Positions 3,887 through 61,985 of a stretch of DNA of 64,000 nucleotides are shown in pieces; position 1 is the first letter of the stretch, and the number at the start of each line of letters is the position of its first letter. The notes under the pieces were generated by a model, which was not told the origin of the DNA, did not search any database, and worked only from the letters and a program-made list of their open reading frames with translations. Both the position numbers and the translations under genes were made by a program. This stretch comes from Polyangiales bacterium (GTDB lineage Bacteria; Myxococcota_A; Polyangia; Polyangiales; Ga0077539), in assembly GCA_044229975.1 (NCBI GenBank), contig JBGARZ010000005.1, positions 64,001-128,000 on the forward strand, written 5' to 3'.

Positions 3887-4689
3887 GCGCCAACTCGGTC
3901 GAGCGGTGGGATGTGTTCTGGCGGTGGGAGAGCTTCCGTCGGCGGTGCGACCCGGTAGACGCGCGCCGCTGGAAGCGCGACTCGCAGCGCGAGCTCTGGG
4001 AGCGCTTCGGTGACCGCGACCCGCTGGTGCTGGACGCGACGCTCGGGCTCGGCGACCACGCGCTCAACCTCTGCGAGCTGGGCTTCCGCACGGAGGGCTG
4101 CGACGGGAGCGCGCTGGCGTTGTCGCTCGCCCGCGAGATGCTGGCGCGGGAGGGCGCGCGGGTGGAGACCTTCGAGGCGCGGTGGGCCTCGCTGGGCGCG
4201 ACGCACGCGGGTCGCTACGGGCTGATCTTCCACGACGCGCTGCACTGGATCTACGAGCGCGACGAGCTGCTCGCGGCGCTGCGCGGACTGCACGCGGCGC
4301 TGGCGCCGGGCGGGGCGCTGGCGTTCTTCTTCGCGGAGGCGAAGAAGCCCGAGGAGGGGGAGGCGCTGCGGGTGATGCAGTGGGAGCTCGCGCGCCTGGT
4401 CGAGCACGAGGACGTGTGGTCGCACGAGCGCGACGGGACGCGGGTGACGTGCACGCGGCGCAACGTGGTGGGGGCGGACTACATCGATCAGGCGTACTCG
4501 TTTGCGGTGAGCGAGCCGGGTGGGGCCACGCGGGTGGAGGAGACGACGTTGCGCCGGGTGTACCGATGGGACTGGTTCGCGCTGGGCGGGGTGCTGCGCG
4601 AGGCGGGCTTCGTGGATGTGCGGTCGGAGCAGTGCCGCAACGCGCTCGGGGATGGCTACGCGCTCAACCTGGCGTACCGGGCTGGGTAA
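3883..4689 (+). CDS. class I SAM-dependent methyltransferase
   Basis: VLDATLGLG motif, GCDGS, ALAPGG; GTG start overlaps upstream TGA (GTGA). Confidence 0.75.
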   Translation: MSANSVERWDVFWRWESFRRRCDPVDARRWKRDSQRELWERFGDRDPLVLDATLGLGDHALNLCELGFRTEGCDGSALALSLAREMLAREGARVETFEARWASLGATHAGRYGLIFHDALHWIYERDELLAALRGLHAALAPGGALAFFFAEAKKPEEGEALRVMQWELARLVEHEDVWSHERDGTRVTCTRRNVVGADYIDQAYSFAVSEPGGATRVEETTLRRVYRWDWFALGGVLREAGFVDVRSEQCRNALGDGYALNLAYRAG

Positions 4690-4729
4690 CCGCGCGAGCT
4701 TCGACGCATGGCCCGCAATGCGCGCGTCT

Positions 4730-4820
4730 GCCCAACGGCTGGCCGCTGTGCCACCGCAGTGGGCGGGGTGGGGTGGTGATGAGTGGAGTGGGAGCGGTCG
4801 GCACCATCGGCTTGTTGGGC
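4730..4820 (-). repeat. attC site 1
   Basis: Minus strand GCCCAAC-AAGCCGATGGTGCCGACCGC...GCGGTGGCACAGCGGCCAGCC-GTTGGGC, directly after the TAG of the cassette gene. Confidence 0.9.
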
Positions 4821-4821
4821 A

Positions 4822-5520
4822 CTAGCCACTGCCATTGATGACTAGCACTTTGCGCCCCGTTCCGCCATCCGCTTCCCAGCCGTATTTCGTCACACCTCGG
4901 CGTCCCAAACACTCGCAAGTTGCGGTGCCGCTCGCCGTTGCGTTCATGAACTCAACGATCAGAAGACTCCGCAAGGCCATTCGGGACACCAAGCTGTCGC
5001 ACATTCGGCCAAGCGCCTCGCCGGAGTAGTATTGCAGTACCTTGCGACAGACGATCAGGTCGAACGGGCCCGTTTCGACTGAGGCGTCGGCAATGTCGCC
5101 TCGAACAAAGCGAATGGTCCCACCAGCACGATACGGCGGAGTCCATACGCACTGTTTCGCGAGCTTGCCTTCTCTGTAGGTGTCATACCGGTGCTCGCGA
5201 ACCGTTGGCGCCGCGCAGTTCGCTTGTAGACGCAAGAGCGCTACATCCGAGATGTCTAGCGCTGTGACCTCTGCTCCCATCGCGACAAAGTCGAGAGGTT
5301 CGATCGAGACACCGTTACCGGCAAAGAGAGCCCGAGACACTGGCGTCGATTCAAAGTACTCCCGCATTTGGAACGCCAACGAGTAGATGGGGAGTGAATC
5401 GCCCGCATGGCTCGCCCACCACTTGTTCCACCATTCAGGGTTGCGAACCTCCTCGGCGTGGTGGCGACCACCTGAGGTGGCCTCTCTTCCCGAGAACAGG
5501 CTACGGATGAACGAAAGCAT
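4822..5520 (-). CDS. cassette gene: divergent class I SAM methyltransferase
   Basis: LFAGNGVS motif, VTALDISD, FVRGDI, GPFDLIVCR; lies between attC sites. Confidence 0.7.
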   Translation of the reverse strand: MLSFIRSLFSGREATSGGRHHAEEVRNPEWWNKWWASHAGDSLPIYSLAFQMREYFESTPVSRALFAGNGVSIEPLDFVAMGAEVTALDISDVALLRLQANCAAPTVREHRYDTYREGKLAKQCVWTPPYRAGGTIRFVRGDIADASVETGPFDLIVCRKVLQYYSGEALGRMCDSLVSRMALRSLLIVEFMNATASGTATCECLGRRGVTKYGWEADGGTGRKVLVINGSG

Positions 5521-5533
5521 GGTCCTCTGTATC

Positions 5534-5624
5534 GCCTAACGACTGGCCGATGTGCCGCCGCACCGGGCGCGGCGGGTTGGCAGTGGGTGAAGCGGGGGCG
5601 GTCGGCACCATCGGCTTGTTGGGC
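5534..5624 (-). repeat. attC site 2
   Basis: GCCCAAC...GTTAGGC on minus strand, same conserved arms, 91 bp. Confidence 0.9.
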
Positions 5625-5647
5625 ACGTCAGGTCGCATGCGTCACAT

Positions 5648-6127
5648 TCACAGGTAATCAAAGAACCGGATCCACCAAGTGATTCGTCCGTCGTTGAGCG
5701 CGCGGTTCTTGCCGTCGTAGATCTCGCCGAGTTCGTCTGCTGGCACATATCTCCAGCCTCGCAGTTCGACCACTGCCCTGATTCTATCCACCGGGTAGTT
5801 TGTCAGAGTGTCCGGCACGGCGCTGTAGATCGTATAAAAGCGCCCGAAGTTCGAGAACCGCACCGCGATCTCGGGAGTGAGGGCTACGACGCCATTCGCG
5901 CGAAAGCTGTCCGGATGAAGTCGGCGCAGTTCGTCGTGAAAGGATGCGTCTTGCACATACCCATCGCGGTCAAACGGCAGATTGAGTTCATTGCGTAGAG
6001 TTTCCTGAATGCTCCCAACGCTTGCCGCGAGTGCGTCGTACGGGAAGGCCGCCCAATTCTCTCCGGGCACCTCGCAACCGACGGGGTCGTCAGAGTCGTC
6101 GAGCAGTTTTCGAAGCGCTGGATTCAC
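5648..6127 (-). CDS. cassette gene: hypothetical protein
   Basis: ORF fills the inter-attC space; probable GTG start (VNPALRK) just after the R' site. Confidence 0.7.
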   Translation of the reverse strand: MNPALRKLLDDSDDPVGCEVPGENWAAFPYDALAASVGSIQETLRNELNLPFDRDGYVQDASFHDELRRLHPDSFRANGVVALTPEIAVRFSNFGRFYTIYSAVPDTLTNYPVDRIRAVVELRGWRYVPADELGEIYDGKNRALNDGRITWWIRFFDYL

Positions 6128-6135
6128 GGATACCT

Positions 6136-6226
6136 GCCCAACGACTGGCCGCTGTGCCGCCGCCACGTATCAGGTGACTGTTCCTCTGGCTGATTGGACG
6201 CGGTCGGCACCAGCGGCTTGTTAGGA
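6136..6226 (-). repeat. attC site 3
   Basis: TCCTAAC...GTTGGGC on minus strand, 91 bp. Confidence 0.9.
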
Positions 6227-6406
6227 ATGCTGAACCTTGCTGGCGACGCGATGGTGGCAGTGCCGGACGTGGGACGCAGGCCAACCGTGGTCGTTGCCGT
6301 GGTCGTTGCCGTGGTCGTTGCCGTGGTCGTTGCCGTGGTCGTCGCCGCGGCCGTCGCCCTCGCCGTCACTGCCCACTGCCTGGCCGTCACGTCGCTCGTC
6401 TCCCAT
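6221..6406 (-). CDS. possible cassette peptide with (DHGN)n repeats, His/Asp-rich
   Basis: 61-aa ORF whose TAA lies inside the R'' TCCTAAC; no clear RBS, so it may be non-coding. Confidence 0.35.
   Translation of the reverse strand: MGDERRDGQAVGSDGEGDGRGDDHGNDHGNDHGNDHGNDHGWPASHVRHCHHRVASKVQHS
6285..6356. repeat. 12-bp tandem repeat (CCGTGGTCGTTG)x4 plus 2 degenerate copies
   Basis: Read directly from sequence. Confidence 0.9.
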
Positions 6407-6518
6407 CGCTCACAGTTCGCTGCTCGAAGACCGTTGTCCGTTGTCGGACGCTTGCTTCCTCGCCGATCGTGGCCCGATTCGTGCTCTTCGCAGGGCGCCG
6501 CTCGTCGCTCTCCGAGCT

Positions 6519-6609
6519 TCCTAACGGCTGGCCGATGTGCCGCCGCAATGAGCGGGAGATCCGTTCCTGAGGCTGAGTGCGAGCGGTCGGCACCATCGGC
6601 TTGTTGGGC
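6519..6609 (-). repeat. attC site 4
   Basis: GCCCAAC...GTTAGGA on minus strand, 91 bp. Confidence 0.9.
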
Positions 6610-6699
6610 ACGCCGCCCGCTGCCCTGTCCACGCGCATGTGCGACGTCACGCCATTGCTCTCCGTGAACTCCGTAGCGCCGGACCCAAGACGATCGGCA

Positions 6700-7251
6700 T
6701 CAGTCGCGCTTCCATAGCGAGAGGAATTCCGCGGCTACCACCAACGTTCGGCCGCTGTCGGAGAACCCGAATGCCCGTAGCTCGGGCCAATCCTTGACCA
6801 ATAGGAACTCCCTGTCCGATTCGCTGGATGGGTCGTCGTAGGGGACTTTGAGCACCAAGCTCTCACAAGGCCAGTTGGGCGCGATTCGACGGACCTTCCA
6901 TCCGTCCGGGGTGAAGGCCTTGAGCCCTCCCCCCCACAAGCCAGCAACGGGGATGCGCCGGCCGGCGAGCGGCCCGATGCCGACAACCGACACGGGGTAA
7001 GGGTCGTGCTCGCCCTCCGCGTTGCCGCTGTGGCCAGGTTCGTCGGCCAAGGTGTCGCCCGTCTTGGCGTCGACCACGGTCAGTCCGTCGTGGGTCAGCA
7101 CAACCAGCCACTCGGTGCCCGGTGCGAAACCCATCGCGACGGGCATCTCGAAAAATCTCTCCACCGACACCCGCGCCCAAGGGGGCGGCGGATTGACCCT
7201 CTGGCGACTTCGCCACTCTGCACGAATCTTTCGGATGCGCTCATTGGTCAT
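6700..7251 (-). CDS. cassette gene: hypothetical protein (beta-rich)
   Basis: 183-aa ORF filling the inter-attC interval. Confidence 0.7.
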   Translation of the reverse strand: MTNERIRKIRAEWRSRQRVNPPPPWARVSVERFFEMPVAMGFAPGTEWLVVLTHDGLTVVDAKTGDTLADEPGHSGNAEGEHDPYPVSVVGIGPLAGRRIPVAGLWGGGLKAFTPDGWKVRRIAPNWPCESLVLKVPYDDPSSESDREFLLVKDWPELRAFGFSDSGRTLVVAAEFLSLWKRD

Positions 7252-7316
7252 TGAGTCTTCGGCCCTGATCGAAGGGCCTTGTCGCTCTCACGCTGCCAAC
7301 CCGTGGGGCCGAGGCT

Positions 7317-7407
7317 GCCCAACGACTGGCCGATGTGCCGCCGCAGCGGGCGCGCCGGGTTGGCGGTGGATGAAGTGGGAGCGGTCGGCACCATCGGCTT
7401 GTTCGGC
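7317..7407 (-). repeat. attC site 5
   Basis: GCCGAAC...GTTGGGC on minus strand, 91 bp. Confidence 0.9.
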
Positions 7408-7441
7408 CAAAGTGGTCGCTGCGACGGCAAGATGGCAGCCA

Positions 7442-7810
7442 TCATGCAATCCAGCATTTTTCCGAGGTGATCTGCTGAACGCTGCCATCACGGCCGAACG
7501 CGACGAACCACGTCCCACCATCACCCAACCCACCGCTAGTTACGCAGCCGAACGAAATCTCAACCTCGTCCGATTCAAGCGGTTTCGCACTCAAGTGGTA
7601 TCCGTGAGCCTTGCCTGTGTAGAAGATCGTGTCGAGGTCGAGGCCAGCTGTAAGTTCGCTGTGAAGAAGTTTGCACGCCAAGATGTGAGTTTCGGTGTCT
7701 GCACACTGGAGAAAGAACGCAGTCACCTTCTCATCGCCAAGGAAGCCTCGCGCCACCGCCACCTCTTTCTCCCGCCGTGTCTTGGGTGTTTTGGTCTTCC
7801 GTCGCTTCAC
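7442..7810 (-). CDS. cassette gene: hypothetical protein
   Basis: Probable GTG start with GGAGG upstream; fills the inter-attC interval. Confidence 0.65.
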   Translation of the reverse strand: MKRRKTKTPKTRREKEVAVARGFLGDEKVTAFFLQCADTETHILACKLLHSELTAGLDLDTIFYTGKAHGYHLSAKPLESDEVEISFGCVTSGGLGDGGTWFVAFGRDGSVQQITSEKCWIA

Positions 7811-7909
7811 AGGGCGTCCCTCCACAAGCATCCCGCTGCCAAGTCTGTGCTCGATCGCGGCGCGCTACCCAATCCTTACTTGCACGCAGCGGCACTCGTC
7901 GAGTCCGCT

Positions 7910-8000
7910 GTCGAACGGCCTGCCGATGTGCCGCCGCATCGGGTGCGACGGGTTGGCAGGGGGTGAAGCGGGGGCGGTCGGCACCATCGGCTTGTTAGAC
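7910..8000 (-). repeat. attC site 6
   Basis: GTCTAAC...GTTCGAC on minus strand, 91 bp. Confidence 0.9.
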
Positions 8001-8028
8001 CAACGGTATGTCATCTGGGTGTCGCTCG

Positions 8029-8529
8029 TCACTCGCCAGTCTCCATTGGGAGCAAAGGCGTTTCTGCCGAACGCCTGAAGTAGCCGGAAACGGCGGCGCC
8101 CGCGTTAGCGAAGAAGCGAGCGTCTTCCTCGTCATCCTCCGGCCGGGCAAGGCGCCACAGAGAGATTTGCCACTCCTGAAAAATGAAGGAAAAGCCGGGA
8201 TCGGTAATGGCACGATCAAATGGTGTGAAGATGTCGAGTGCAGGGATGAGGTCCGATGCTGGCGTCGCAAGCAGATCGTACCCTTGAAACATGACGGCGA
8301 CAGGGCCGCCACGGCACACCTCAATGAACTCCGCGGTGTCTGTCGATCGCTGATAGAACACCTGGAAGGAATTCCCGAACCAGGCATCGGCAAGTGGATC
8401 GTCCGCGAGCATGTTTTTCTGGAAGCTGACGGGAGTCGACCCCATAGCCGCTCGCACTTCCATCCGCGATGCACCCAATCTCACTGGACCGATGCCGACG
8501 AGGGGAATGATGTCAAAGCGAAGCTGCAT
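8029..8529 (-). CDS. cassette gene: hypothetical protein
   Basis: 166-aa ORF starting MQLRFDIIPLVGIGPVRLG, between attC sites. Confidence 0.7.
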   Translation of the reverse strand: MQLRFDIIPLVGIGPVRLGASRMEVRAAMGSTPVSFQKNMLADDPLADAWFGNSFQVFYQRSTDTAEFIEVCRGGPVAVMFQGYDLLATPASDLIPALDIFTPFDRAITDPGFSFIFQEWQISLWRLARPEDDEEDARFFANAGAAVSGYFRRSAETPLLPMETGE

Positions 8530-8649
8530 CGGCGTCCGTCACCTATCGTTTCGTGGCTCGCTACTCGTTGATCGCGGCACGCCAACCATGGCTCTCCGCT
8601 CTGGGATCGCGGCGCGGGTCTTGCTCTTCCGTAGGCCGCTGCTCTGGGC

Positions 8650-8740
8650 GTCTAACGGCTGGCCGGTGTGCCGCCGCACTGGCTGCGTTGGGTTGCCATT
8701 GAGCACATCGTGGGCGGTCGGCACCACCGGCTTGTTAGGA
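8650..8740 (-). repeat. attC site 7
   Basis: TCCTAAC...GTTAGAC on minus strand, 91 bp. Confidence 0.9.
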
Positions 8741-8828
8741 GGCAGCCTGCGCCCCGCCTGCCCGCGCCTCGCGCCTTGCTCATCCGGCGTCAGTGGCTGC
8801 TTGTCGTCCATTGCTCCGTCACCCCGCC

Positions 8829-9146
8829 TTACGTCGCTTCTCGCGAGGCTCTCGCTCGGCCGCCGGACAGTTCAAGCCACTCGACGATCACGTCGGCCGT
8901 CTCGACGAGTGACGTCGTCGTGACGCGCCCTCCGTGCTTGTCCGTCTCGACAAGGAACGGGCACGCGCCGGAGCTCGACTCGATCTGGACTTCGCCCGGC
9001 CGACTTGGAATCCAGAAGAACCACAGGCCGTCGTCGTCTGCGGTATGTGTGACTGACAACTGCTCCCATTCCACGTTGGGCAACCGTGCTCGCACCAGCC
9101 CGATCAGTTCCTCGATGTCCGGCGTTATCGTGGAAACAGTCCCCAT
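8829..9146 (-). CDS. first cassette gene: hypothetical protein
   Basis: ATG (MGTVSTI) with GGAG upstream; 105 aa. Confidence 0.65.
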   Translation of the reverse strand: MGTVSTITPDIEELIGLVRARLPNVEWEQLSVTHTADDDGLWFFWIPSRPGEVQIESSSGACPFLVETDKHGGRVTTTSLVETADVIVEWLELSGGRARASREAT

Positions 9147-9226
9147 TACTCCACCCGCACGCGGCTTGAACCCGATGGGAGACTTTCTCGTTCCAGACTG
9201 CCTCGAACCCTCGCCAGTGTCGCGCC

Positions 9227-9245
9227 GCCTAACATCTCGTTCACC
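9227..9245 (-). other. candidate attI recombination site
   Basis: Minus strand GGTGAAC-GAGAT-GTTAGGC = L site, 5-bp spacer, GTTRRRY; sits at the head of the array with no attC arm. Confidence 0.65.
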
Positions 9246-9279
9246 CCGCGCCCCATTGCCGAATCCCGTCTTTGGCGCT

Positions 9280-9363
9280 GCTCGCCCGCTTGCTACCCAA
9301 CTCCATATCCCCATTCGCGTAGTTCGCCCGCTCGCTGCCCAATTCCATAACCCCATTTCGGCG
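9280..9363. repeat. two degenerate 42-bp direct repeats
   Basis: gctcgcccgcttgctacccaactccatatccccatt / gttcgcccgctcgctgcccaattccataaccccatt. Confidence 0.8.
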
Positions 9364-9889
9364 CTCTTCGCCAGCCTCTCCTCTCCTCCGCCGCGTCGCC
9401 CTCCTCCCGACCCGCGCCGCGACGGCCTCGCCCCGCAGCTCGAATCCACCCGAGTTCGTCACGGCGCTGAGCTCGCGGCCCGGCGTGGCGACGTCGACCT
9501 CCCCCGACGCCCTCCGCACGAAGCTCCCCGGCGCCTCGACCCGCTCACGAGTCCACCCTCCAGCCCGCCGTCCACCACGCCGCCCAGGCCGCAGCCATCG
9601 ACCAGCGCCGCCTGCCATACCCCTGCCACACCCCTTCCCCGCCCCTTCCCCACCTCCAACGCCCCTCGTCATCCCCGACCTGCACCAGCGCCCCTCCCCG
9701 ATGACCCACGGTCATCCCCGCCCCGCATCTCCGCGACCTCCCCATGACCCGCCGTCATCCCCGACCAGCACCCACGCTCCCTTCGACCGCGCCGACCCAT
9801 CGGACACCTGCGTTCGCGCTCCCTTCTCATGGCGCTTGCCTATCGCCAGTCCCACCAGAGACAACCGGCGATCAAGGGAGGTTATGTTC

Positions 9890-10780
9890 ATGGGGAAGAA
9901 GAACGTTCCAACCAACGCTCCGGGTCATGCAGCGGGCGGCGACGGCGCGCCCCCGGTCGGCGACGCGCAGGCCGCGTACGAGTCGCGCAAGGCCGCGTGG
10001 AAGGCCCTCGGCGGCGTCGAGCTCGGTCCGCCGCGCGTCAACCTCGGCTTCGTCACGGCGCGGGTGCTCCAGATCGGCCGCGCGCTCGCGGAGCCCGGCA
10101 CGCTCGCATCCTTCGACGCGCTCGCCGCCGTGCCGCTGGCCGACGCATCCCCCTACGACGCAGGCGCCGTGCGCCGGCTCCCGGTCATCGCCCTGGCCCT
10201 GTGGCACGCGCGCTACTGCTACCTCACGGCCTCGGCGCAGGCGACGACCGTCGCGCTCCCGCCCGAGACCGTCGCGGCCGCCACGAAGCTACGCGAGGTG
10301 ATGCTCCGCGTCGTGGCCTACCACTGCGTCGACGCCAACAACCCCGACGACAAGGTCGCCGCCGACCTCGACTCCATCCGCGCGGTCGAGGGCCCTCGCT
10401 ATCTCGACCTCGCCACCGACCTCTCGCGCCTCGCGGCCTACTACCGCGACCCTCGCTGGCTCCCGGTGTTCACCACCGATACGCGGCACTTCCGCGCGTC
10501 CGACGGCGAGGCCGCCGAGAAGGCCGCGGCCGACATCCTCGCGCGGCTGCACCAGCGCACCGACGAGGCAGCGACGTGGCTCGTCGAGCTCTACCGCGGC
10601 TGGGCCGACCTCCAGCGCACCTACGACGTCGTGCGGCGCGGGGCGAGCTTCGTGTTCTGGGGCGACGAGGCGAAGGTGCCGCCGCTCGGGTCGCTCCGAC
10701 CGGCGGCGCGCAAGGCGACCAGGGCCGGGGAGACGGAAGAAGACGAAGACCCGATCACCCCTCCCCCGCCGACGACGTGA
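9890..10780 (+). CDS. hypothetical helical protein divergent from the cassette array
   Basis: GGAGG RBS, ATG, host-like codon usage; no tyrosine recombinase motifs. Confidence 0.8.
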   Translation: MGKKNVPTNAPGHAAGGDGAPPVGDAQAAYESRKAAWKALGGVELGPPRVNLGFVTARVLQIGRALAEPGTLASFDALAAVPLADASPYDAGAVRRLPVIALALWHARYCYLTASAQATTVALPPETVAAATKLREVMLRVVAYHCVDANNPDDKVAADLDSIRAVEGPRYLDLATDLSRLAAYYRDPRWLPVFTTDTRHFRASDGEAAEKAAADILARLHQRTDEAATWLVELYRGWADLQRTYDVVRRGASFVFWGDEAKVPPLGSLRPAARKATRAGETEEDEDPITPPPPTT

Positions 10781-13917: not shown

Positions 13918-14670
13918 ATGTTCGGCGCGTTGCGACGACGAGGCCGAGAGCGTGTGTGGGGTTGGGTGCTGGCTGCTCTGTGCGTGGGCGGGTGCCGCGC
14001 GCCCTCCGCGCGACGGGTGAGCCGCGCCGCGGAGGTGAGCGCCGCGGGGTTGTACTGGGGGCGGTGGGCGGAGGTTCCGGAGGGGATGCGGGTGGCGGTG
14101 TGGCTGCACGAGGACGGCGACGTGCTGCGCGGGAGCTGGGATCTGGTCCCGTGGCACGGCGAGGTGGCGCTGCGGCGTACGGCGACGGGCTACGAAGGGA
14201 GCTGGCGCGAGGAGGGCACCATCGCCATCCAGCAGGGGCGCGAGCGGCGGGTGCGGTTGCTCCGTGATGGGCGCGACGGGTCGCTGCGCGAAGAGGGCGC
14301 GCCGGCCGGTGAGCCCGTGGTGTTGCAGCGCGCGGGGCGGCCGACGTCGGCGCTGCGCGAGGGGCTGTGGCTGGGGCGCTGGACGGGCCTGCCGACGGGG
14401 GTCGCGGTGGAGACGCTGCTGACGCCGCTGGGCGACGGGCGATGGCGCGCGACGTACCGCTACCAGGAGCGCGAAGGCACCTTCGACGGCGACGCGTTGC
14501 CGGGCGGCGGAATGACCATCCGCTGGCGCGAGGTGTCGCCGCGCGATCAGATGGCGCGCGGTCGGGGGCAGTTGTTGCCCGATGTGTTGGGCCTGCGCGG
14601 AACCTACGGCGTGGACGAGCAGTCGACCGGAACGGGGTTCTGGGCGCTGGAGGCGTGGAGGCTGCCGTGA
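13918..14670 (+). CDS. hypothetical lipoprotein
   Basis: Hydrophobic N-terminus ending VGGC; beta-rich duplicated domain. Confidence 0.6.
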   Translation: MFGALRRRGRERVWGWVLAALCVGGCRAPSARRVSRAAEVSAAGLYWGRWAEVPEGMRVAVWLHEDGDVLRGSWDLVPWHGEVALRRTATGYEGSWREEGTIAIQQGRERRVRLLRDGRDGSLREEGAPAGEPVVLQRAGRPTSALREGLWLGRWTGLPTGVAVETLLTPLGDGRWRATYRYQEREGTFDGDALPGGGMTIRWREVSPRDQMARGRGQLLPDVLGLRGTYGVDEQSTGTGFWALEAWRLP

Positions 14671-14969
14671 GCGACGGGACGGCGCGGAGGCTGCGGGCCT
14701 TGGTGGAGGGCGACGCGCTCGCGGTAGCGGAGGCGCTGCACGCCGACGTGGTGTTCGTGCAGGGCGACGGCACGACGCACTGCGGGGCCGAGGCGGTGCT
14801 CGCGGTGTTTGCGGGTGGGGACGGCGGCGTGCGCTACGCGGTGGTCGCCGCGACGCACGGAGCGGTGGAGGTCGAGCTGACGGTGGAGGGACTCGCTGGT
14901 GCGGTGCGCTTCACACTGCGCGGCGAGAGCGAAGGCGAGCGGCTGGTGCGGGTGATGGTCGAGGCGTGA
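14667..14969 (+). CDS. small NTF2/SnoaL-like hypothetical protein
   Basis: GTGA coupling; GDALAVAEALHADVVF...HCGAEAV pattern. Confidence 0.5.
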   Translation: MSDGTARRLRALVEGDALAVAEALHADVVFVQGDGTTHCGAEAVLAVFAGGDGGVRYAVVAATHGAVEVELTVEGLAGAVRFTLRGESEGERLVRVMVEA

Positions 14970-14997
14970 GGGGCCAGCGACCGTGACGGGGCGGGGT

Positions 14998-15261
14998 TCA
15001 GCCCCCGTTGGCGACGCGCGCGAGCGGCATCACCGGGGCGGCGGGCGCGACCCCTTCCTCGTCGGCGCGCGTGACGGAGAGCACCTTCATGTCCGGGTGC
15101 TGCGTCACGGCATCGCGCGCGGCCTGCGCGGCGGTGCGGGTCTCGATGAACACCGATACGGTGGACGCCTCGCGCTCGCGCAGCGGACGCATGCTCACCT
15201 CGAAACGATGACTCCAGATTCCTGCCAAGACTCTGACCTCCCGTACGGGCCAAGACTGCAC
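14998..15261 (-). CDS. small hypothetical protein (start uncertain)
   Basis: GC3-biased ORF convergent with upstream operon. Confidence 0.4.
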   Translation of the reverse strand: MQSWPVREVRVLAGIWSHRFEVSMRPLREREASTVSVFIETRTAAQAARDAVTQHPDMKVLSVTRADEEGVAPAAPVMPLARVANGG

Positions 15262-20963: not shown

Positions 20964-21956
20964 ATGTCTTCCGCCCGCGCTCCGTCGATCGTGCTCTCCC
21001 TGGGTCTGGTCGCCGCGTGTTCGTCGCGCCCGCCGCCCCGCCCGGTCGTCGTGGCCCGGCCGCCCGACCCGGTCGCCATCTCGCTCGGCGAGGTGCGCGT
21101 CAACCACACGCCGTGGACGGCGCCCACCCCACCGCCCTTCCCCCCGCCGCCGCGTCGCGCGCCCCGTCGCGTGAGCATCCCGATGGACGTCGCGCAGCCC
21201 ATCCTCGCCTCCACCAACGCCCCGGTGCGCGCTTGCTACAAAGCCTTCCTGGCGTTTTCGCCGCAGGCCGGCGGCTCCATCGTCACGCTCATCACCGTCG
21301 GCCCGGGCGGCTCCGTCAGCGACGTCGAGACCGTCGGAACGCCCGACCCCTCGCTCGCCATCATGTCGCAGTGCGTGCTCACCGCCCTGCGCACGCGGCG
21401 CTTCCCGGCGCTCGGCGCGCCGTCACTGATGTCGTTTCCGTTCAGCTTCCGCAGCGGCGAGGTCAACGGCCAGACGCTGCCCGCGCCGACGCTCCCGGAG
21501 CCCCGCCCCGGCGAGATGCAGGTGCCCAACCCCGAGAACGTCACCGTCAACCCGTGGCGCCCCGCGCTCATCCCGGCGAGCAACCCGGTGCCCGTGATGA
21601 CCCGCGAGCTCGTCGACACCGTCATCCCCGACGTGCAGTCGCTCGCCGACACCTGCTACGCCGCCACGCTCGTGATGAACCCCGCCGCCGAAGGCGACTT
21701 CACCCTGCGCGCCGCGGTCGAGCCCTCGGGCAACGTCAACCGCCTCGACATCACGCCCGCGGACTTCCCGTCGCCCATGCGCGACTGCGTGGTGACGCTC
21801 GGTCGGCAGCTCCACTTCCACCCGAGCCTGACCGGCGCCGTGGTCACCATCCCGGTGACCCTCCATCGCGTCGAGCCCGAGGCCCCCGGCACCACCAACG
21901 CCCCGGCCTCACCCGCCACCGCAGGCGGCTCGATCGTCCCCGTCCCCGCCCGCTAA
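20964..21956 (+). CDS. lipoprotein with two TonB-C/AgmX-PglI-like domains
   Basis: LVAAC lipobox; VRACY...QCV...FP..FPF and TCY...DCV...F..IP repeats. Confidence 0.7.
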   Translation: MSSARAPSIVLSLGLVAACSSRPPPRPVVVARPPDPVAISLGEVRVNHTPWTAPTPPPFPPPPRRAPRRVSIPMDVAQPILASTNAPVRACYKAFLAFSPQAGGSIVTLITVGPGGSVSDVETVGTPDPSLAIMSQCVLTALRTRRFPALGAPSLMSFPFSFRSGEVNGQTLPAPTLPEPRPGEMQVPNPENVTVNPWRPALIPASNPVPVMTRELVDTVIPDVQSLADTCYAATLVMNPAAEGDFTLRAAVEPSGNVNRLDITPADFPSPMRDCVVTLGRQLHFHPSLTGAVVTIPVTLHRVEPEAPGTTNAPASPATAGGSIVPVPAR

Positions 21957-22621
21957 CCCCGCAACCGTCGGTACGCCGCGATCACCGCGCGCAGCCGCTC
22001 CGCCCGCGACGCATCTCCTGCGTGGCGGTCGGGGTGCAGCGCCATCACCAGCTCCTGGAAGCGCCTTCGCAGGGCCACGGTGCCCGGGTCGCGGTCGAAG
22101 CCCAGCGCCGCGAGATCGCTCACGCGCGCGGGGTCGACGGACGAGTGATCGCGACGTCGCGGCCGGCCGTGGAAGGTCTCCGACGCGAGCAACGGCGCCT
22201 GCTCGGCGGTGCCCTCGGGCAGCGCTCGCGCGGAACGAAAACGCAGCGATGCCGCACCCACGCGGTAGAGGGATTCGAGTCGCGAGAGGCGCTGGGCGTC
22301 GAGCACACGATCGCGGGTCGAGGCGCTCACCACGCGCCGCCAGACGAGCGCCTGCCCGATGCGAAAACCTCGCGCGCGCCCTTCTCCCCACGCACGCTCG
22401 ACGGCGCCTCGATCGGCGACACCCGCGGCCACGGCCACGTCGCCGAAGCGACGCGCATCGGACGGCGACTCGACGGCCTGCACGGCACCACCGCGGAGAT
22501 GAACGTGATGGGTGCGGTCGGACTCGACGACCTCCAGGGTGCCGGTGGCGTTGGCGCGGTGGAGGGCAGCGAGCAGGTCGCCCAGGGTGGTCTCACCGAG
22601 CTGCGAAGGGAGGGTCATCAC
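21953..22621 (-). CDS. DUF4388-like domain plus C-terminal J domain protein
   Basis: LGDLLAAL..ATGTLEV N-terminus; LHPDR J-domain motif. Confidence 0.75.
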   Translation of the reverse strand: MMTLPSQLGETTLGDLLAALHRANATGTLEVVESDRTHHVHLRGGAVQAVESPSDARRFGDVAVAAGVADRGAVERAWGEGRARGFRIGQALVWRRVVSASTRDRVLDAQRLSRLESLYRVGAASLRFRSARALPEGTAEQAPLLASETFHGRPRRRDHSSVDPARVSDLAALGFDRDPGTVALRRRFQELVMALHPDRHAGDASRAERLRAVIAAYRRLRG

Positions 22622-40383: not shown

Positions 40384-41657
40384 AGGGCGTACTCGCCACG
40401 CTCGCGCTCCTGTGCGGCTGCCGTTGGGACGTCGTGATTGGTTCCGATGGCCTCGCGCTGTCGACCGACGATGCCGGCGCGATGGACGCCTCGACCGGGG
40501 ACGTTGCACCCGCGGTCGATGCCGTCGACGTGGTCGCCGTCGATCGTGGGTTTGCGCCTGATCGGCCCGACGTCCCGGTGGTGGTCGATGTGCCGGAGGT
40601 ACCGATGGGGACCATCCGAGCGGTGGCGATCGGCGGCGACTTCCTGTGCATCGTGCGCTCGGAGGGCTCGGTGTGGTGCCGCGGCGACAACACCCACGGC
40701 GCGCTCGGCGACGGAACGACCGCCGCGACGAGCGAGCAGGTGCGCGTGCAGGGCATCGGCCCGGTGGCGTCGATGGTGGCGGGGCGGCGACACGCGTGCG
40801 CGATGTTGTCGGCGGGCGGCGTTCGGTGCTGGGGCGCCAACGACCGCGGGCAGCTCGGCGACGGCACCACCATCGACCGACCGACGCCGGTGGCGCCGGC
40901 GGGCATCCCGGATGTCGAAGCGGTCACCGCCGGGGCGGCGCACACCTGCGTTCGAACCGGCGTGGTGGTGCGCTGCGCAGGCGCCAACGAGCACGGCCAG
41001 CTTGGGGATGGGACCGGCACCGACCGCGCGACCTTCGTCCCGGTGAGCGGAACCTACGGGCGCGTGGAGGCGGGCGGAGCGTTCACGCTGGCGGAGACGG
41101 CCGGAGGGATGCTCGTCGCGTGGGGCGCCAATGACCACGGGCAGCTCGGCGACGGGACCACCACCGACCGCCCGATGCCGGGAGCGGTCGCGGGCGCAGC
41201 GGCGGCGGGGCGGGTGCTCGCGGTGGGTGACGCGCACGCGCTGGCGCGGGTGGCCGACGGGACGACCTACGCATGGGGAGACAACGCCCAGGGGGCATTG
41301 GGAGACGGCTCCACGACGGAGCGACGGACGCCCGTGGAGGTGGCGGCGTGGCGCGAGTCGACGTCGGTGCGGGCGGGGCGCGGGTTCACCTGCGGCGACG
41401 GCACTGCCGTGGCGATGCGATGCACCGGCGCCAACGATCTGGGTCAGGTGGGCGACGACAGCGGGATGGCGCGCAGCACGCCCGTGGTGGTGGCGGTGTC
41501 GCCACGGGGTCCCGTCGCGTTCAAGGCGGCGGGCTTCGACCGGGCGTGCGCCGCGCCATCGCCCGCGGAGCTGTGGTGCTGGGGCGACAACGCGCTCGGG
41601 CAACTGGGTCCGGCCGCGGAGACGCGACAGCTACGACCGGTGCTCGTCGGGCGCTGA
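40380..41657 (+). CDS. RCC1-repeat lipoprotein
   Basis: LLCGC lipobox; repeated CWGxNxxGQLGDGT. Confidence 0.88.
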   Translation: MKGVLATLALLCGCRWDVVIGSDGLALSTDDAGAMDASTGDVAPAVDAVDVVAVDRGFAPDRPDVPVVVDVPEVPMGTIRAVAIGGDFLCIVRSEGSVWCRGDNTHGALGDGTTAATSEQVRVQGIGPVASMVAGRRHACAMLSAGGVRCWGANDRGQLGDGTTIDRPTPVAPAGIPDVEAVTAGAAHTCVRTGVVVRCAGANEHGQLGDGTGTDRATFVPVSGTYGRVEAGGAFTLAETAGGMLVAWGANDHGQLGDGTTTDRPMPGAVAGAAAAGRVLAVGDAHALARVADGTTYAWGDNAQGALGDGSTTERRTPVEVAAWRESTSVRAGRGFTCGDGTAVAMRCTGANDLGQVGDDSGMARSTPVVVAVSPRGPVAFKAAGFDRACAAPSPAELWCWGDNALGQLGPAAETRQLRPVLVGR

Positions 41658-59243: not shown

Positions 59244-61985
59244 GTGATGATTCGACGAAGGCTCGGTCTGGGGGTGGCGCTGCTCGCGCTCGTCGGCTGT
59301 GACGACATCTCGGTGGTCGGCAGCGACTCCGGTCCCCCCGATGTCCCCTCGGTCGATGTCGCCCTCGAAGATGTCCCGGTCGCCAAGGACGCAGGCTTCG
59401 ATGTCGGCTTCGATGTGGGGTTCGACGTCGGCTTCGACCTGGGCACGCCCGACACGGGCCCGATGCTGGAGTGCCGCGCGTCCGCTGACTGCGCCACGGC
59501 GCCCGGCGGCCCGGTGTGCGACCTCGCAAGCAACCGCTGCGTGCGCTGCACCGCCACCGAAGACGTCTGCGCCGTCGGAACCTACTGCGCGTCCAACGCG
59601 TGCGTTCCTGGCTGTCGCGGCGCGGCCGACTGCTCGGGCACCTCGGTCTGCGACGTCGCCTCGCACACCTGCGTCGGCTGCACCGTCGACACCGACTGCG
59701 CGATCGGAACCATCTGCCGCGCCAACGCCTGCGTCCCCGGCTGCGGACCTGGGCGCGCGTGCGGCGCGGGCTCGACCTGTTGCGGGACGAGCTGCGTCAA
59801 CACCGACTCCGACGTCGCCCACTGCGGCGCCTGCGCGACGGCCTGCGCCGCGGGCTCGGTCTGCTGCACCGGCGCGTGCGCCAACCCGACCAGCGACGCC
59901 ACGCACTGCGGCGCCTGCGGAACGCGCTGCACCGCCGCCAACGGCACCGGCGTCTGCACGGCGGGCGCGTGCGCCGTCGGCACCTGCAACCCGGGCTTCG
60001 GCGACTGCGACGGCAACGCGGCCAACGGCTGCGAGGTGGACCTCACCACGTCCGCCGCCAACTGCGCGACCTGCGGCAACGTGTGCCCCGCGCGCGCCAA
60101 CGCGGCGGCCACCTGCGCCGGGTTGACCTGCGGCATCGCGTGCAGCGCGGGATTCGGCAACTGCGACGCCAACGCCGCTAACGGCTGCGAGGTCGCGCTC
60201 TCCACGTCGGTCTCCAACTGCGGAGCGTGCGGCAACACCTGCATCGTCCCCAACGCGACGGCCGCGTGCGTGGGCGGGGCGTGTGGGGTGGGCGCATGCA
60301 CCACGGGCTTCGGCAACTGCGACGGCTCGGTGGCCAACGGCTGCGAGGTCACCACCACGTCGAACACCGCCCACTGCGGCGCGTGCAACAACCGCTGCGC
60401 CGCGGGCGAGAGCTGCATCGCGGGCGCGTGCACGCTGGTGTGCTCGACCCCGGCCATCGCGTGCGGGGCGAGCTGCGTCGACCCGCGCACCGACCTCAAC
60501 CACTGCGGCGACTGCGGCAGGGTGTGCCCCGCGACCCCGGCCAACGGCGCCGGAACGTGCGCGGCAGGATCGTGCTCGCTCACGTGCAACCGCGGCTTCG
60601 CCGACTGCGACACGACGGTGGCCAACGGCTGCGAGATCAACCTGCTGTCGGCGGTCGACGGCTGCGGGGCCTGCGGGCGGGTGTGCTCGTTCGCCAACGC
60701 CGCACGGAGCTGCGTCAACGCGGCGTGCGAGCTGGGCGCGTGCACTGCTGGCTTCGGCAACTGCGACGGCGCACCGGCCAACGGCTGCGAGGTCGAGCTC
60801 AACACCACCGCCAACTGCGGGGCGTGCGGTCGGGCCTGCGCGCTGGCCAACGCCACGGCGGCGTGTACCGCGGGCGCTTGCGCGGTGGCGGCCTGCACGA
60901 CGGGTTACGGCAACTGCGACGGCGCGGCGGCCAACGGGTGCGAGACGGACACCCGGACGAGCTCGCTGCACTGCGGAGCGTGCGGGCGGGCATGCGCCGC
61001 GGGGCAGGCGTGCGCGGCCGGGACGTGCGTGGCGATGTGCGCGCGGCCGACGGCGTTCTGCGCGGGCGGGTGCGTGACGCTGGCGACGGACGCGGCGAAC
61101 TGCGGCGCGTGCGGGGTGCGCTGCGGCGCGGGCGAGGTCTGCGCGAGCGGTGATTGTGTGGGCGCGCCTCCGGCCAACGACACGGTGGCGACGGCCACGC
61201 CGCTCGACCTGTCGCAGCCGACGGTGACGTTTACGGCGAGCACCGAGAACGCGACGAGCGACGTGGTGACGCCGTGCCTCGGCAGCAACGCCAACCGCGG
61301 CGGCGACGTCTTCTATCGGCTCACGCTGACGCAGCGCGAGCTCGTGTACGCCGACACCTTCGGCGGCGGGACCTACGACAGCGCGCTCTTCTTCGCCAAC
61401 GCGGCGGGAGTGGCGGTGACGGCGAGCCGCACGCCGGGCGACACGGTCTGCAACGACGACGCGGATGGTCCGTGCCCGGGCGTGGGCAACAGCGCGATGG
61501 TGGTCACGGTGCTCGATCCGGGCGTCTGGTACCTCGTGGTGACGGGCTACGGGTCGAGCCGGGGGACGGCTCCGGTGCACTTCGAGCACCTGCCCGCGGG
61601 CGCTGGTGTGCTCGCGGCGCTGACGGCGGGAACGAGCGCGACCGTGACGGGCGTGCTGGCGACGACGCCACCTGTAGGCGCAGTGACCAGCGGCACGTGC
61701 GGCGGCGCGGGACTGGAGAATGCGTACTGGTGGCGGACGTGTCCCGCGGCGCTCACGGCGACGCTCACGGCGCAGACGTGCGCGGGCGCGGCCTTCGACA
61801 CGGTGCTGCACGCGGCGCACGGCGACGGGACGCGGGCGTGCAACGACAACGGCGGAGGGAGCTGCGGGGCGCAGTCGTCGCTGACGTCGACGTACCCGCG
61901 GCTGGCGCGGCTGCACGCGCTGTACGTCGACGCCTTCGCGACGGGCACGGGCGGCGCGTACACGGTGCGGTACGCGCGACCGTAG
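59244..61985 (+). CDS. large Cys-rich repeat lipoprotein
   Basis: LVGC lipobox; repeated GFGNCDG..ANGCE and NCGACG units; two C-terminal beta domains. Confidence 0.88.
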   Translation: MMIRRRLGLGVALLALVGCDDISVVGSDSGPPDVPSVDVALEDVPVAKDAGFDVGFDVGFDVGFDLGTPDTGPMLECRASADCATAPGGPVCDLASNRCVRCTATEDVCAVGTYCASNACVPGCRGAADCSGTSVCDVASHTCVGCTVDTDCAIGTICRANACVPGCGPGRACGAGSTCCGTSCVNTDSDVAHCGACATACAAGSVCCTGACANPTSDATHCGACGTRCTAANGTGVCTAGACAVGTCNPGFGDCDGNAANGCEVDLTTSAANCATCGNVCPARANAAATCAGLTCGIACSAGFGNCDANAANGCEVALSTSVSNCGACGNTCIVPNATAACVGGACGVGACTTGFGNCDGSVANGCEVTTTSNTAHCGACNNRCAAGESCIAGACTLVCSTPAIACGASCVDPRTDLNHCGDCGRVCPATPANGAGTCAAGSCSLTCNRGFADCDTTVANGCEINLLSAVDGCGACGRVCSFANAARSCVNAACELGACTAGFGNCDGAPANGCEVELNTTANCGACGRACALANATAACTAGACAVAACTTGYGNCDGAAANGCETDTRTSSLHCGACGRACAAGQACAAGTCVAMCARPTAFCAGGCVTLATDAANCGACGVRCGAGEVCASGDCVGAPPANDTVATATPLDLSQPTVTFTASTENATSDVVTPCLGSNANRGGDVFYRLTLTQRELVYADTFGGGTYDSALFFANAAGVAVTASRTPGDTVCNDDADGPCPGVGNSAMVVTVLDPGVWYLVVTGYGSSRGTAPVHFEHLPAGAGVLAALTAGTSATVTGVLATTPPVGAVTSGTCGGAGLENAYWWRTCPAALTATLTAQTCAGAAFDTVLHAAHGDGTRACNDNGGGSCGAQSSLTSTYPRLARLHALYVDAFATGTGGAYTVRYARP

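Follow-up and report, generated by a model that had tools for sequence, protein, structure and literature searches.

A probable decayed integron in a Polyangiales genome: seven attC-ended cassettes, a broken integrase gene, and possible exchange in trans

Can a cassette array still exchange cassettes when its own integrase gene is broken? The question is raised by positions 4730-9245 of the window, which here means the whole 64,000-nt stretch of DNA analysed (Polyangiales bacterium, assembly GCA_044229975.1, contig JBGARZ010000005.1, positions 64,001 to 128,000 of the forward strand). An original prediction, made from the letters of this stretch, described an integron-type array of seven attC sites without an integrase. 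Our analysis finds that the locus, on what is likely a myxobacterial chromosome, is almost certainly a genuine integron array of cassettes ending in attC, and that it is very probably a complete integron in decay. Judged from sequence, it is probably an attI-headed array with a broken intI of its own that still exchanges cassettes through the integron integrase (IntI) encoded on another contig, C4.

The seven sites as attC sites

The predicted seven sites of 91 bp, with conserved arms and variable centres, were recovered at the same coordinates as ungapped copies (starts in Table 1). Compared in pairs, the window sites average 90% identity across the arms and 51% across the centre, and successive starts from 4730 to 8650 are 804, 602, 383, 798, 593, and 740 bp apart. 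A profile built from the seven sites gave 45 matches in the genome, of which 42 were kept at E ≤ 0.01 and three were dropped. With the loci of relatives included, 158 sites were collected; 129 unique sites were parsed, 28 had no core triplet, and one was a duplicate.

On the minus strand, the elements of a site follow each other as R'' (RYYYAAC), spacer (5 nt), L'' (8 nt), variable centre, L' (7 nt), spacer (8 nt), and R' (GTTRRRY). The AAC and GTT cores are present in 106/106 aligned 91-nt sites, which were chosen for having both triplets and include all seven of the window. L' pairs with L'' on the bottom strand, leaving extrahelical bases at positions 16 and 23/24 with a 6-bp stem between them. 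The first, at position 16 from the R'' end, is C in all 106 aligned sites, and the second, at position 23, is T in 117/129 sites. The central spacers are unpaired, 5 nt long in the R'' arm and 8 nt in the R' arm (8 nt in 118/129).

The stems covary, with 97.4% of cells paired and 18 cells changed on both sides; none of 500 shuffles scored as high, in a control that takes no account of relatedness among sites, and slid controls were 16-55% paired. The compensatory double changes noticed earlier at sites 3 and 7 are present in the sequence, and the arms of site 1 carry uncompensated mismatches. The bottom strand is more stable than the top in 114/123 sites, and the GC skew of the centre is positive in 117/123. 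In the window, the + strand forms the expected stem in 7/7 sites with z-scores of -0.5 to -3.2 against shuffles, so that single folds are only modestly above chance. A generic scanner for attC geometry picked out 7/7 window sites and none in 600 kb of random genome. An Rfam scan of 4500-10000 matched no family.

IntI recombination at G/TT (the slash marks the cut) should leave the first bases of a cassette matching its own R'' rather than the R'' in front of it. Among 53 adjacent pairs, the four bases after G/TT fit the next cassette's own R'' better in 32 and the preceding R'' better in one, with 20 ties; in the six window pairs the counts are four, zero, and two. The pairs are not fully independent, some cassettes being related. 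This chimerism is the strongest sign of integrase action, an indirect one. Together, the R and L boxes, the two extrahelical bases, the covarying arms, the bottom-strand bias, and the match to the own R'' bear out the attC architecture originally proposed, including arms that pair on the + strand with a C and a T left unpaired. How often attC is preceded by an open reading frame (ORF), at 37/42 sites in the genome, is not taken as evidence because ORFs are abundant at such GC content.

The array head and the integrases of the genome

A GTTAGGC core at 9227-9233 is followed by a motif common to the heads of five other arrays in the genome, C2, C23b, C28, C14, and C4. This attI-like core also heads complete integrons in the relatives G014 and G002, and in G014 it sits ~170 nt upstream of an intact intI. 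A stricter pattern has six matches in the genome, four at array heads and two at unrelated places on C38. By its match to the heads of complete integrons, the core is a good candidate for attI.

Behind it, the leader is likely an accessory integrase-binding and promoter region. Its identity is 92% with the leader of C2 and 88% with that of C23b, and 9323-9404 is 81% identical over 86 bp to the DNA just upstream of the intact G002 intI. A metagenome scan for the window leader returned one unrelated chance match only.

A remnant of intI follows in two pieces. The first, intI nt 487-635, lies at 9392-9540 (nhmmer E 4.8e-9 genome-wide), and the second, intI nt 717-796, at 9545-9622 (E 1.7e-4 locally, against E 2.9 for the reversed control). 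The 5' half of the gene is gone, an internal deletion separates the pieces, and frameshifts are present. The attI core and the remnant stand in the usual divergent layout at the array head. The earlier statement that the array has no integrase thus holds for an intact adjacent intI, the local copy being a fragment, but it had overlooked the remnant and the attI-like site directly upstream.

The search of the genome for the arms and for an IntI, proposed with the original prediction, placed the 42 sites of the family at 10 loci on nine contigs. There are seven co-oriented arrays, of 3, 5, 5, 6, 6, 7, and 7 sites, and three single sites. Among 12 tyrosine recombinases in the genome, one passes the integron-integrase cut-off, the intact IntI at C4:248120-249070 (TIGR02249, 414.7 bits; cut-off 265). 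It divergently adjoins a five-site array of the same attC family and has the catalytic-type motifs. The leaders of C2, C23b, and C14 have no detected remnant of intI behind them. The C28 array does have one (G000:C28:41971; G000 is this genome), and it begins, as the window remnant does, at intI nt 483-487, a coincidence that suggests either one deletion in common or a hot spot for deletions.

The recombinase beside array C19 was considered as a further IntI and rejected at 199.5 bits, below the cut-off of 265. It adjoins a transposase frame, which we take to be IS91-like. The C19 array is headed by a 111-bp palindromic attC-like site of unrelated sequence (G000:C19:433338-433448, locus L001).

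Exchange in trans and its alternatives

Folding of attC, its binding by IntI, and cutting at G/TT are established integron biology. At this locus, the + strand of each site would fold in single-stranded DNA, IntI would bind the R and L boxes plus the two extrahelical bases and cut at G/TT, and cassettes would be excised or inserted as circles. As to history, the lineage would carry several complete integrons per genome at shifting loci, and the intI of this one would have lost its 5' half and then decayed, the attI and attC sites staying intact.

We lean, by a little, toward servicing in trans having continued after intI decayed. Cassette 4 has a copy in C23b at a synonymous divergence (dS) of 0.13, and cassette 6 has copies in C23a (dS 0.18) and in G001 (dS 0.12); dS of the core MMPL gene between congeners is 0.48-0.53. 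For both cassettes the homology spans G/TT to attC and the outer neighbours differ. The intI remnant differs at 22/127 columns that are invariant in five full-length intI alleles. Its changes, on its own branch, thus exceed those of cassettes 4 and 6 summed over two branches, suggesting traffic after the death of intI. Moreover, C19 and C23a have a 99%-identical cassette in common, with homology starting at G/TT behind unrelated upstream sites, so recent IntI-type events are likely in the lineage. Where the original prediction left the array serviced in trans or orphaned, the intact C4 IntI and the shared young cassettes tip the choice toward the former.

Several points weigh against exchange in trans. 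The timing argument is weak, because in a leave-one-out control the distant but intact G014 allele differs at 22% of the invariant columns (the other four at 1-6%), and because synonymous sites are constrained in a genome of 71% GC. Within this genome and the loci fetched from others, cassettes 1, 2, 3, and 7 have no copy, cassette 5 has partial or distant copies only, and no near-identical copy of any window cassette was found. The case for servicing in trans is one of sequence comparison. A promoter and terminator scan of the leader gave nothing, including no sigma-70-type promoter. A second intact intI may also exist, since genome completeness stands at 93% and the start of array C23a coincides with the end of a contig.

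Furthermore, some process other than plain G/TT recombination also reshapes the arrays, because homologous genes carry unrelated attC centres. In 12 cassette pairs the last 300 nt are 88-99% identical, and in nine of these the attC centres are only 33-75% identical, where the background mean of centre identity is 59% and some pairs have a cassette in common. The gap is widest for cassette 4, with 94% identity in the body vs 33% in the centre (window 6519-6609 vs L004:4483-4573). R'' tends to remain with its gene in homologous cassettes. The unrelated centres suggest either that exchange occurs inside the conserved left arm or that attC sites were added repeatedly. It has been proposed that attC-type sites undergo gene conversion (PMC1382264), and the integron literature searched yielded nothing else on exchange of attC centres. 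If it held in more genomes, centre exchange would make the homogenisation of attC families by recombination, as in PMC1382264, testable.

The strongest rival to exchange in trans is somewhat unlikely, namely that the array was built by its local IntI, has been unchanged since intI broke, and is kept by selection on its genes. It would account for the lack of any window cassette copy above ~95% identity elsewhere, and cassettes 4 and 6 are under purifying selection (ratio of nonsynonymous to synonymous divergence ~0.25-0.36); in Xanthomonas, shared intI lesions accompany stable arrays (10.1101/2025.06.18.660453). However, the remnant is heavily decayed here, yet the attI core and all seven attC sites have stayed intact, cassette dS is below the decay of the remnant, and the genome holds an intact IntI of the same family.

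Another possibility, a doubtful one, is that a truncated unit of attI and deleted intI was duplicated to new loci as a non-autonomous platform and loaded with cassettes in trans. Besides their common start, the window (C20) and C28 remnants share the base at 4/6 columns where both differ from all intact alleles, and 0/6 remnant loci of relatives start at nt 483-487. The C20, C2, and C23b leaders are 88-92% identical, and the complete integrons of relatives lie at different loci. On the other hand, G034 holds two full-length intI copies and G035 three long ones (two cut by contig ends), at separate places, and because relatives carry two or three intI, separate decay of several complete integrons suffices without copying. 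The C20 and C28 leaders also have different sequences and numbers of repeats, the deletion joint, flanked by C-rich DNA on either side, could arise more than once, and no empty leader copy was found in the genome. We regard as still more speculative a distributed integron, in which one integrase would serve copied, intI-less attI platforms, and exchange inside the conserved left arm of attC would swap attC centres and keep the family uniform. If true, it would be a natural system of one enzyme and many arrays with a visible mechanism of attC homogenisation.

That the array arose de novo, at a secondary genomic (attG) site without an integron platform, is very improbable. The route has been demonstrated (10.1101/2022.09.11.507474), and genes brought together at the locus are separated in relatives, but its head has the attI core of the family, a leader, and an intI remnant rather than a bare GWT site. 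Least credible of all are dispersed repetitive extragenic palindromic (REP)-like repeats unrelated to integrons, for although the sites are palindromic, uniform in length, and present in 42 genome copies, 39/42 sit in seven same-strand arrays instead of the scatter named at the outset as contrary evidence, one attC array adjoins an intact IntI, and the G/TT chimerism is present.

Contents, distribution, and known relatives

The cassettes, measured from G/TT to G/TT, are 577, 740, 593, 798, 383, 602, and 804 bp long (cassettes 1-7), and the GC content of the array is 62% vs 71% for the genome. Of the one short minus-strand ORF claimed for each site, six cassettes have one clear ORF each, but the 383-bp cassette 5 is doubtful as to coding because its sole 61-aa ORF consists largely of a tandem repeat. 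The repeat has a 12-bp unit in 6.2 copies (6285-6358). Relatives of cassette 5 recur in G002 and G003; three of them stand in tandem at an attI in G002, where the attI leader of a complete integron is interrupted by ~1.25 kb of inserted DNA that looks like an insertion sequence (L028:14486-15731). Only cassette 7 has a family match, a weak one to a methyltransferase. NCBIfam and PADLOC scans of the window cassette proteins gave no notable match, and atlas entries for cassettes 4 and 6 are clusters of hypothetical proteins only.

Table 1 Features of the cassette array and its head in the window
Feature	Position	Strand	Basis or remark
attC of cassette 7 (most distal)	4730..4820	-	+ strand is the recombinogenic bottom strand
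Cassette 7 ORF, 232 aa, S-adenosylmethionine (SAM)-dependent methyltransferase-like	4822..5520	-	Pfam PF13649, 28.8 bits (cut-off 27)
attC of cassette 6	5534..5624	-	Copy alignment, fold, geometry scanner
Cassette 6 ORF, ~159 aa, GTG start inferred, no known family	5648..6127	-	Copies in C23a, G001
attC of cassette 5	6136..6226	-	Copy alignment, fold, geometry scanner
Cassette 5, doubtful 61-aa ORF over 12-bp tandem repeat	6221..6406	-	Relatives in C23a, G002, G003
attC of cassette 4	6519..6609	-	Centre unrelated to that of the homologous C23b cassette
Cassette 4 ORF, 183 aa, no Pfam family	6700..7251	-	Copy in array C23b
attC of cassette 3	7317..7407	-	Copy alignment, fold, geometry scanner
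Cassette 3 ORF, 129 aa, no known family	7442..7831	-	
attC of cassette 2	7910..8000	-	Copy alignment, fold, geometry scanner
Cassette 2 ORF, 166 aa, no known family	8029..8529	-	
attC of cassette 1 (proximal)	8650..8740	-	Copy alignment, fold, geometry scanner
Cassette 1 ORF, 105 aa from ATG within cassette, no known family	8829..9146	-	
attI-like core	9227..9250	-	Predicted G/TT insertion point between 9233 and 9232
Leader, containing degenerate direct repeats of 42 bp (at 9281 and 9323, partial at 9367)	9251..9390	.	
intI pseudogene remnant, nt 487-635 + 717-796 of intI	9392..9622	+	nhmmer, shuffle test

Past the intI remnant, a C-rich stretch contains a 43-bp tandem repeat of 2.5 copies (9667-9772), possibly decayed 3' intI sequence. 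The next ORF upstream (9890-10780, 296 aa) was rejected as a part of the integron, its orthologue in G005 having no attC or intI nearby. The protein belongs to no known family; it has 16 homologues, none with a Pfam domain and one labelled Polyangiales, and two distant paralogues in its own genome. The + strand is G-rich to the left of the array and C-rich to its right, and strong local GC skew of both signs (to +0.28 and -0.31) is seen at 4001-5000, 9001-10000, 14001-15000, and 21001-22000. Coding-type repeats with a period of ~150 bp at 40830-41500 and 59780-61160 are likely repeat-domain proteins. The cargo of the other arrays of the genome (L001-L008) includes proteins of defence- and immunity-type functions: RelA/SpoT-region, HNH, protein kinase, SMI1/KNR4, Imm26, ParE, AIPR, GNAT, and DUF5677.

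As predicted, the attC family looks lineage-specific, and by its sequence it appears almost wholly confined to one Polyangiales-like family. The arm motif occurs in 14/18 genomes of the family and in 0/12 from other families of the order. The exact two-arm pattern was found in 55 stretches among 185,579 species genomes; 52 are in metagenome-assembled genomes labelled Polyangiales, Myxococcota, or Deltaproteobacteria, and three are on short, otherwise-labelled contigs. An IntI over the cut-off occurs in 5/31 genomes. Frameshifted or partial intI copies lie beside arrays in G004, G005, G011, and G018, and one lies in G017 with no array detected. The DNA downstream of intI differs among genomes, G002 and G004 excepted.

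The relatives examined do not share the window locus. In stretches fetched from four congeners, one of which has less than 2 kb on the relevant side, the MMPL orthologues have no attC beside them, and neither do the methyltransferase orthologues in stretches from three. The word sedentary in the original prediction therefore does not fit, the array having seven sites, where a sedentary integron, as Cury et al. 2016 (PMC4889954) define it, has more than 19 or occurs in all genomes of a species, and no attC beside orthologues of the flanking genes in relatives.

A literature search found no description of this attC family or of Polyangiales integrons; the family may be included in supplementary data of PMC8352920 or of the paper on IntegronFinder 2, which lay outside the search. 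PMC13616975 reports no cassettes in its Myxococcaceae genomes. In sequence specificity the sites resemble the taxon-specific attC families of Ghaly et al. 2021 (PMC8352920). They agree with canonical attC (Nivina et al. 2016, PMC5027507) in RYYYAAC/GTTRRRY, extrahelical bases at 16 and 23, the 6-bp stem, and the stabler bottom strand, but position 16 has C where G is the norm, and the spacer between R' and L' measures 8 nt (118/129) against a usual 5-6; PMC7370490 gives a spacer range reaching 10 nt. For a little-studied, uncultured myxobacterial lineage, the system is an addition of one family-specific attC type and a multi-array integron system, leaving the understanding of how integrons work unchanged.

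The closest precedent at the system level is Xanthomonas (10.1101/2025.06.18.660453), with a lineage-wide integron and repeated deletion or frameshift of intI. About half of its genomes also have clusters of attC sites lacking an integron integrase (CALINs; Cury et al. 2016, PMC4889954) at other loci, and the Xanthomonas study calls these mobilisable in trans. However, intI in Xanthomonas is always at ilvD, whereas complete integrons lie at varying loci in the relatives studied here, long intI copies number two or three in some genomes, and the satellite arrays have retained attI heads of their own.

The window array is itself a CALIN formed by intI decay, a known kind. Its seven same-strand sites lie 383-804 bp apart, where at least two clustered sites define the class, and no intact intI is nearby, the only IntI over the cut-off being that on C4. 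It is like the CALINs of PMC4889954 also in being small, in carrying mostly genes of unknown function, and in having an IntI elsewhere; half of CALINs are in replicons encoding IntI, and loss of intI is the third of four proposed origins. An intI pseudogene was detectable near 15/279 CALINs in that study. The window array differs in that its remnant is less than half of the gene, likely below the 50% coverage filter of PMC4889954, in that it retains attI, and in that its genome has, in addition to the complete integron, six arrays of this kind belonging to one attC family. Here the origin of a CALIN by intI decay is readable from sequence despite the short remnant.

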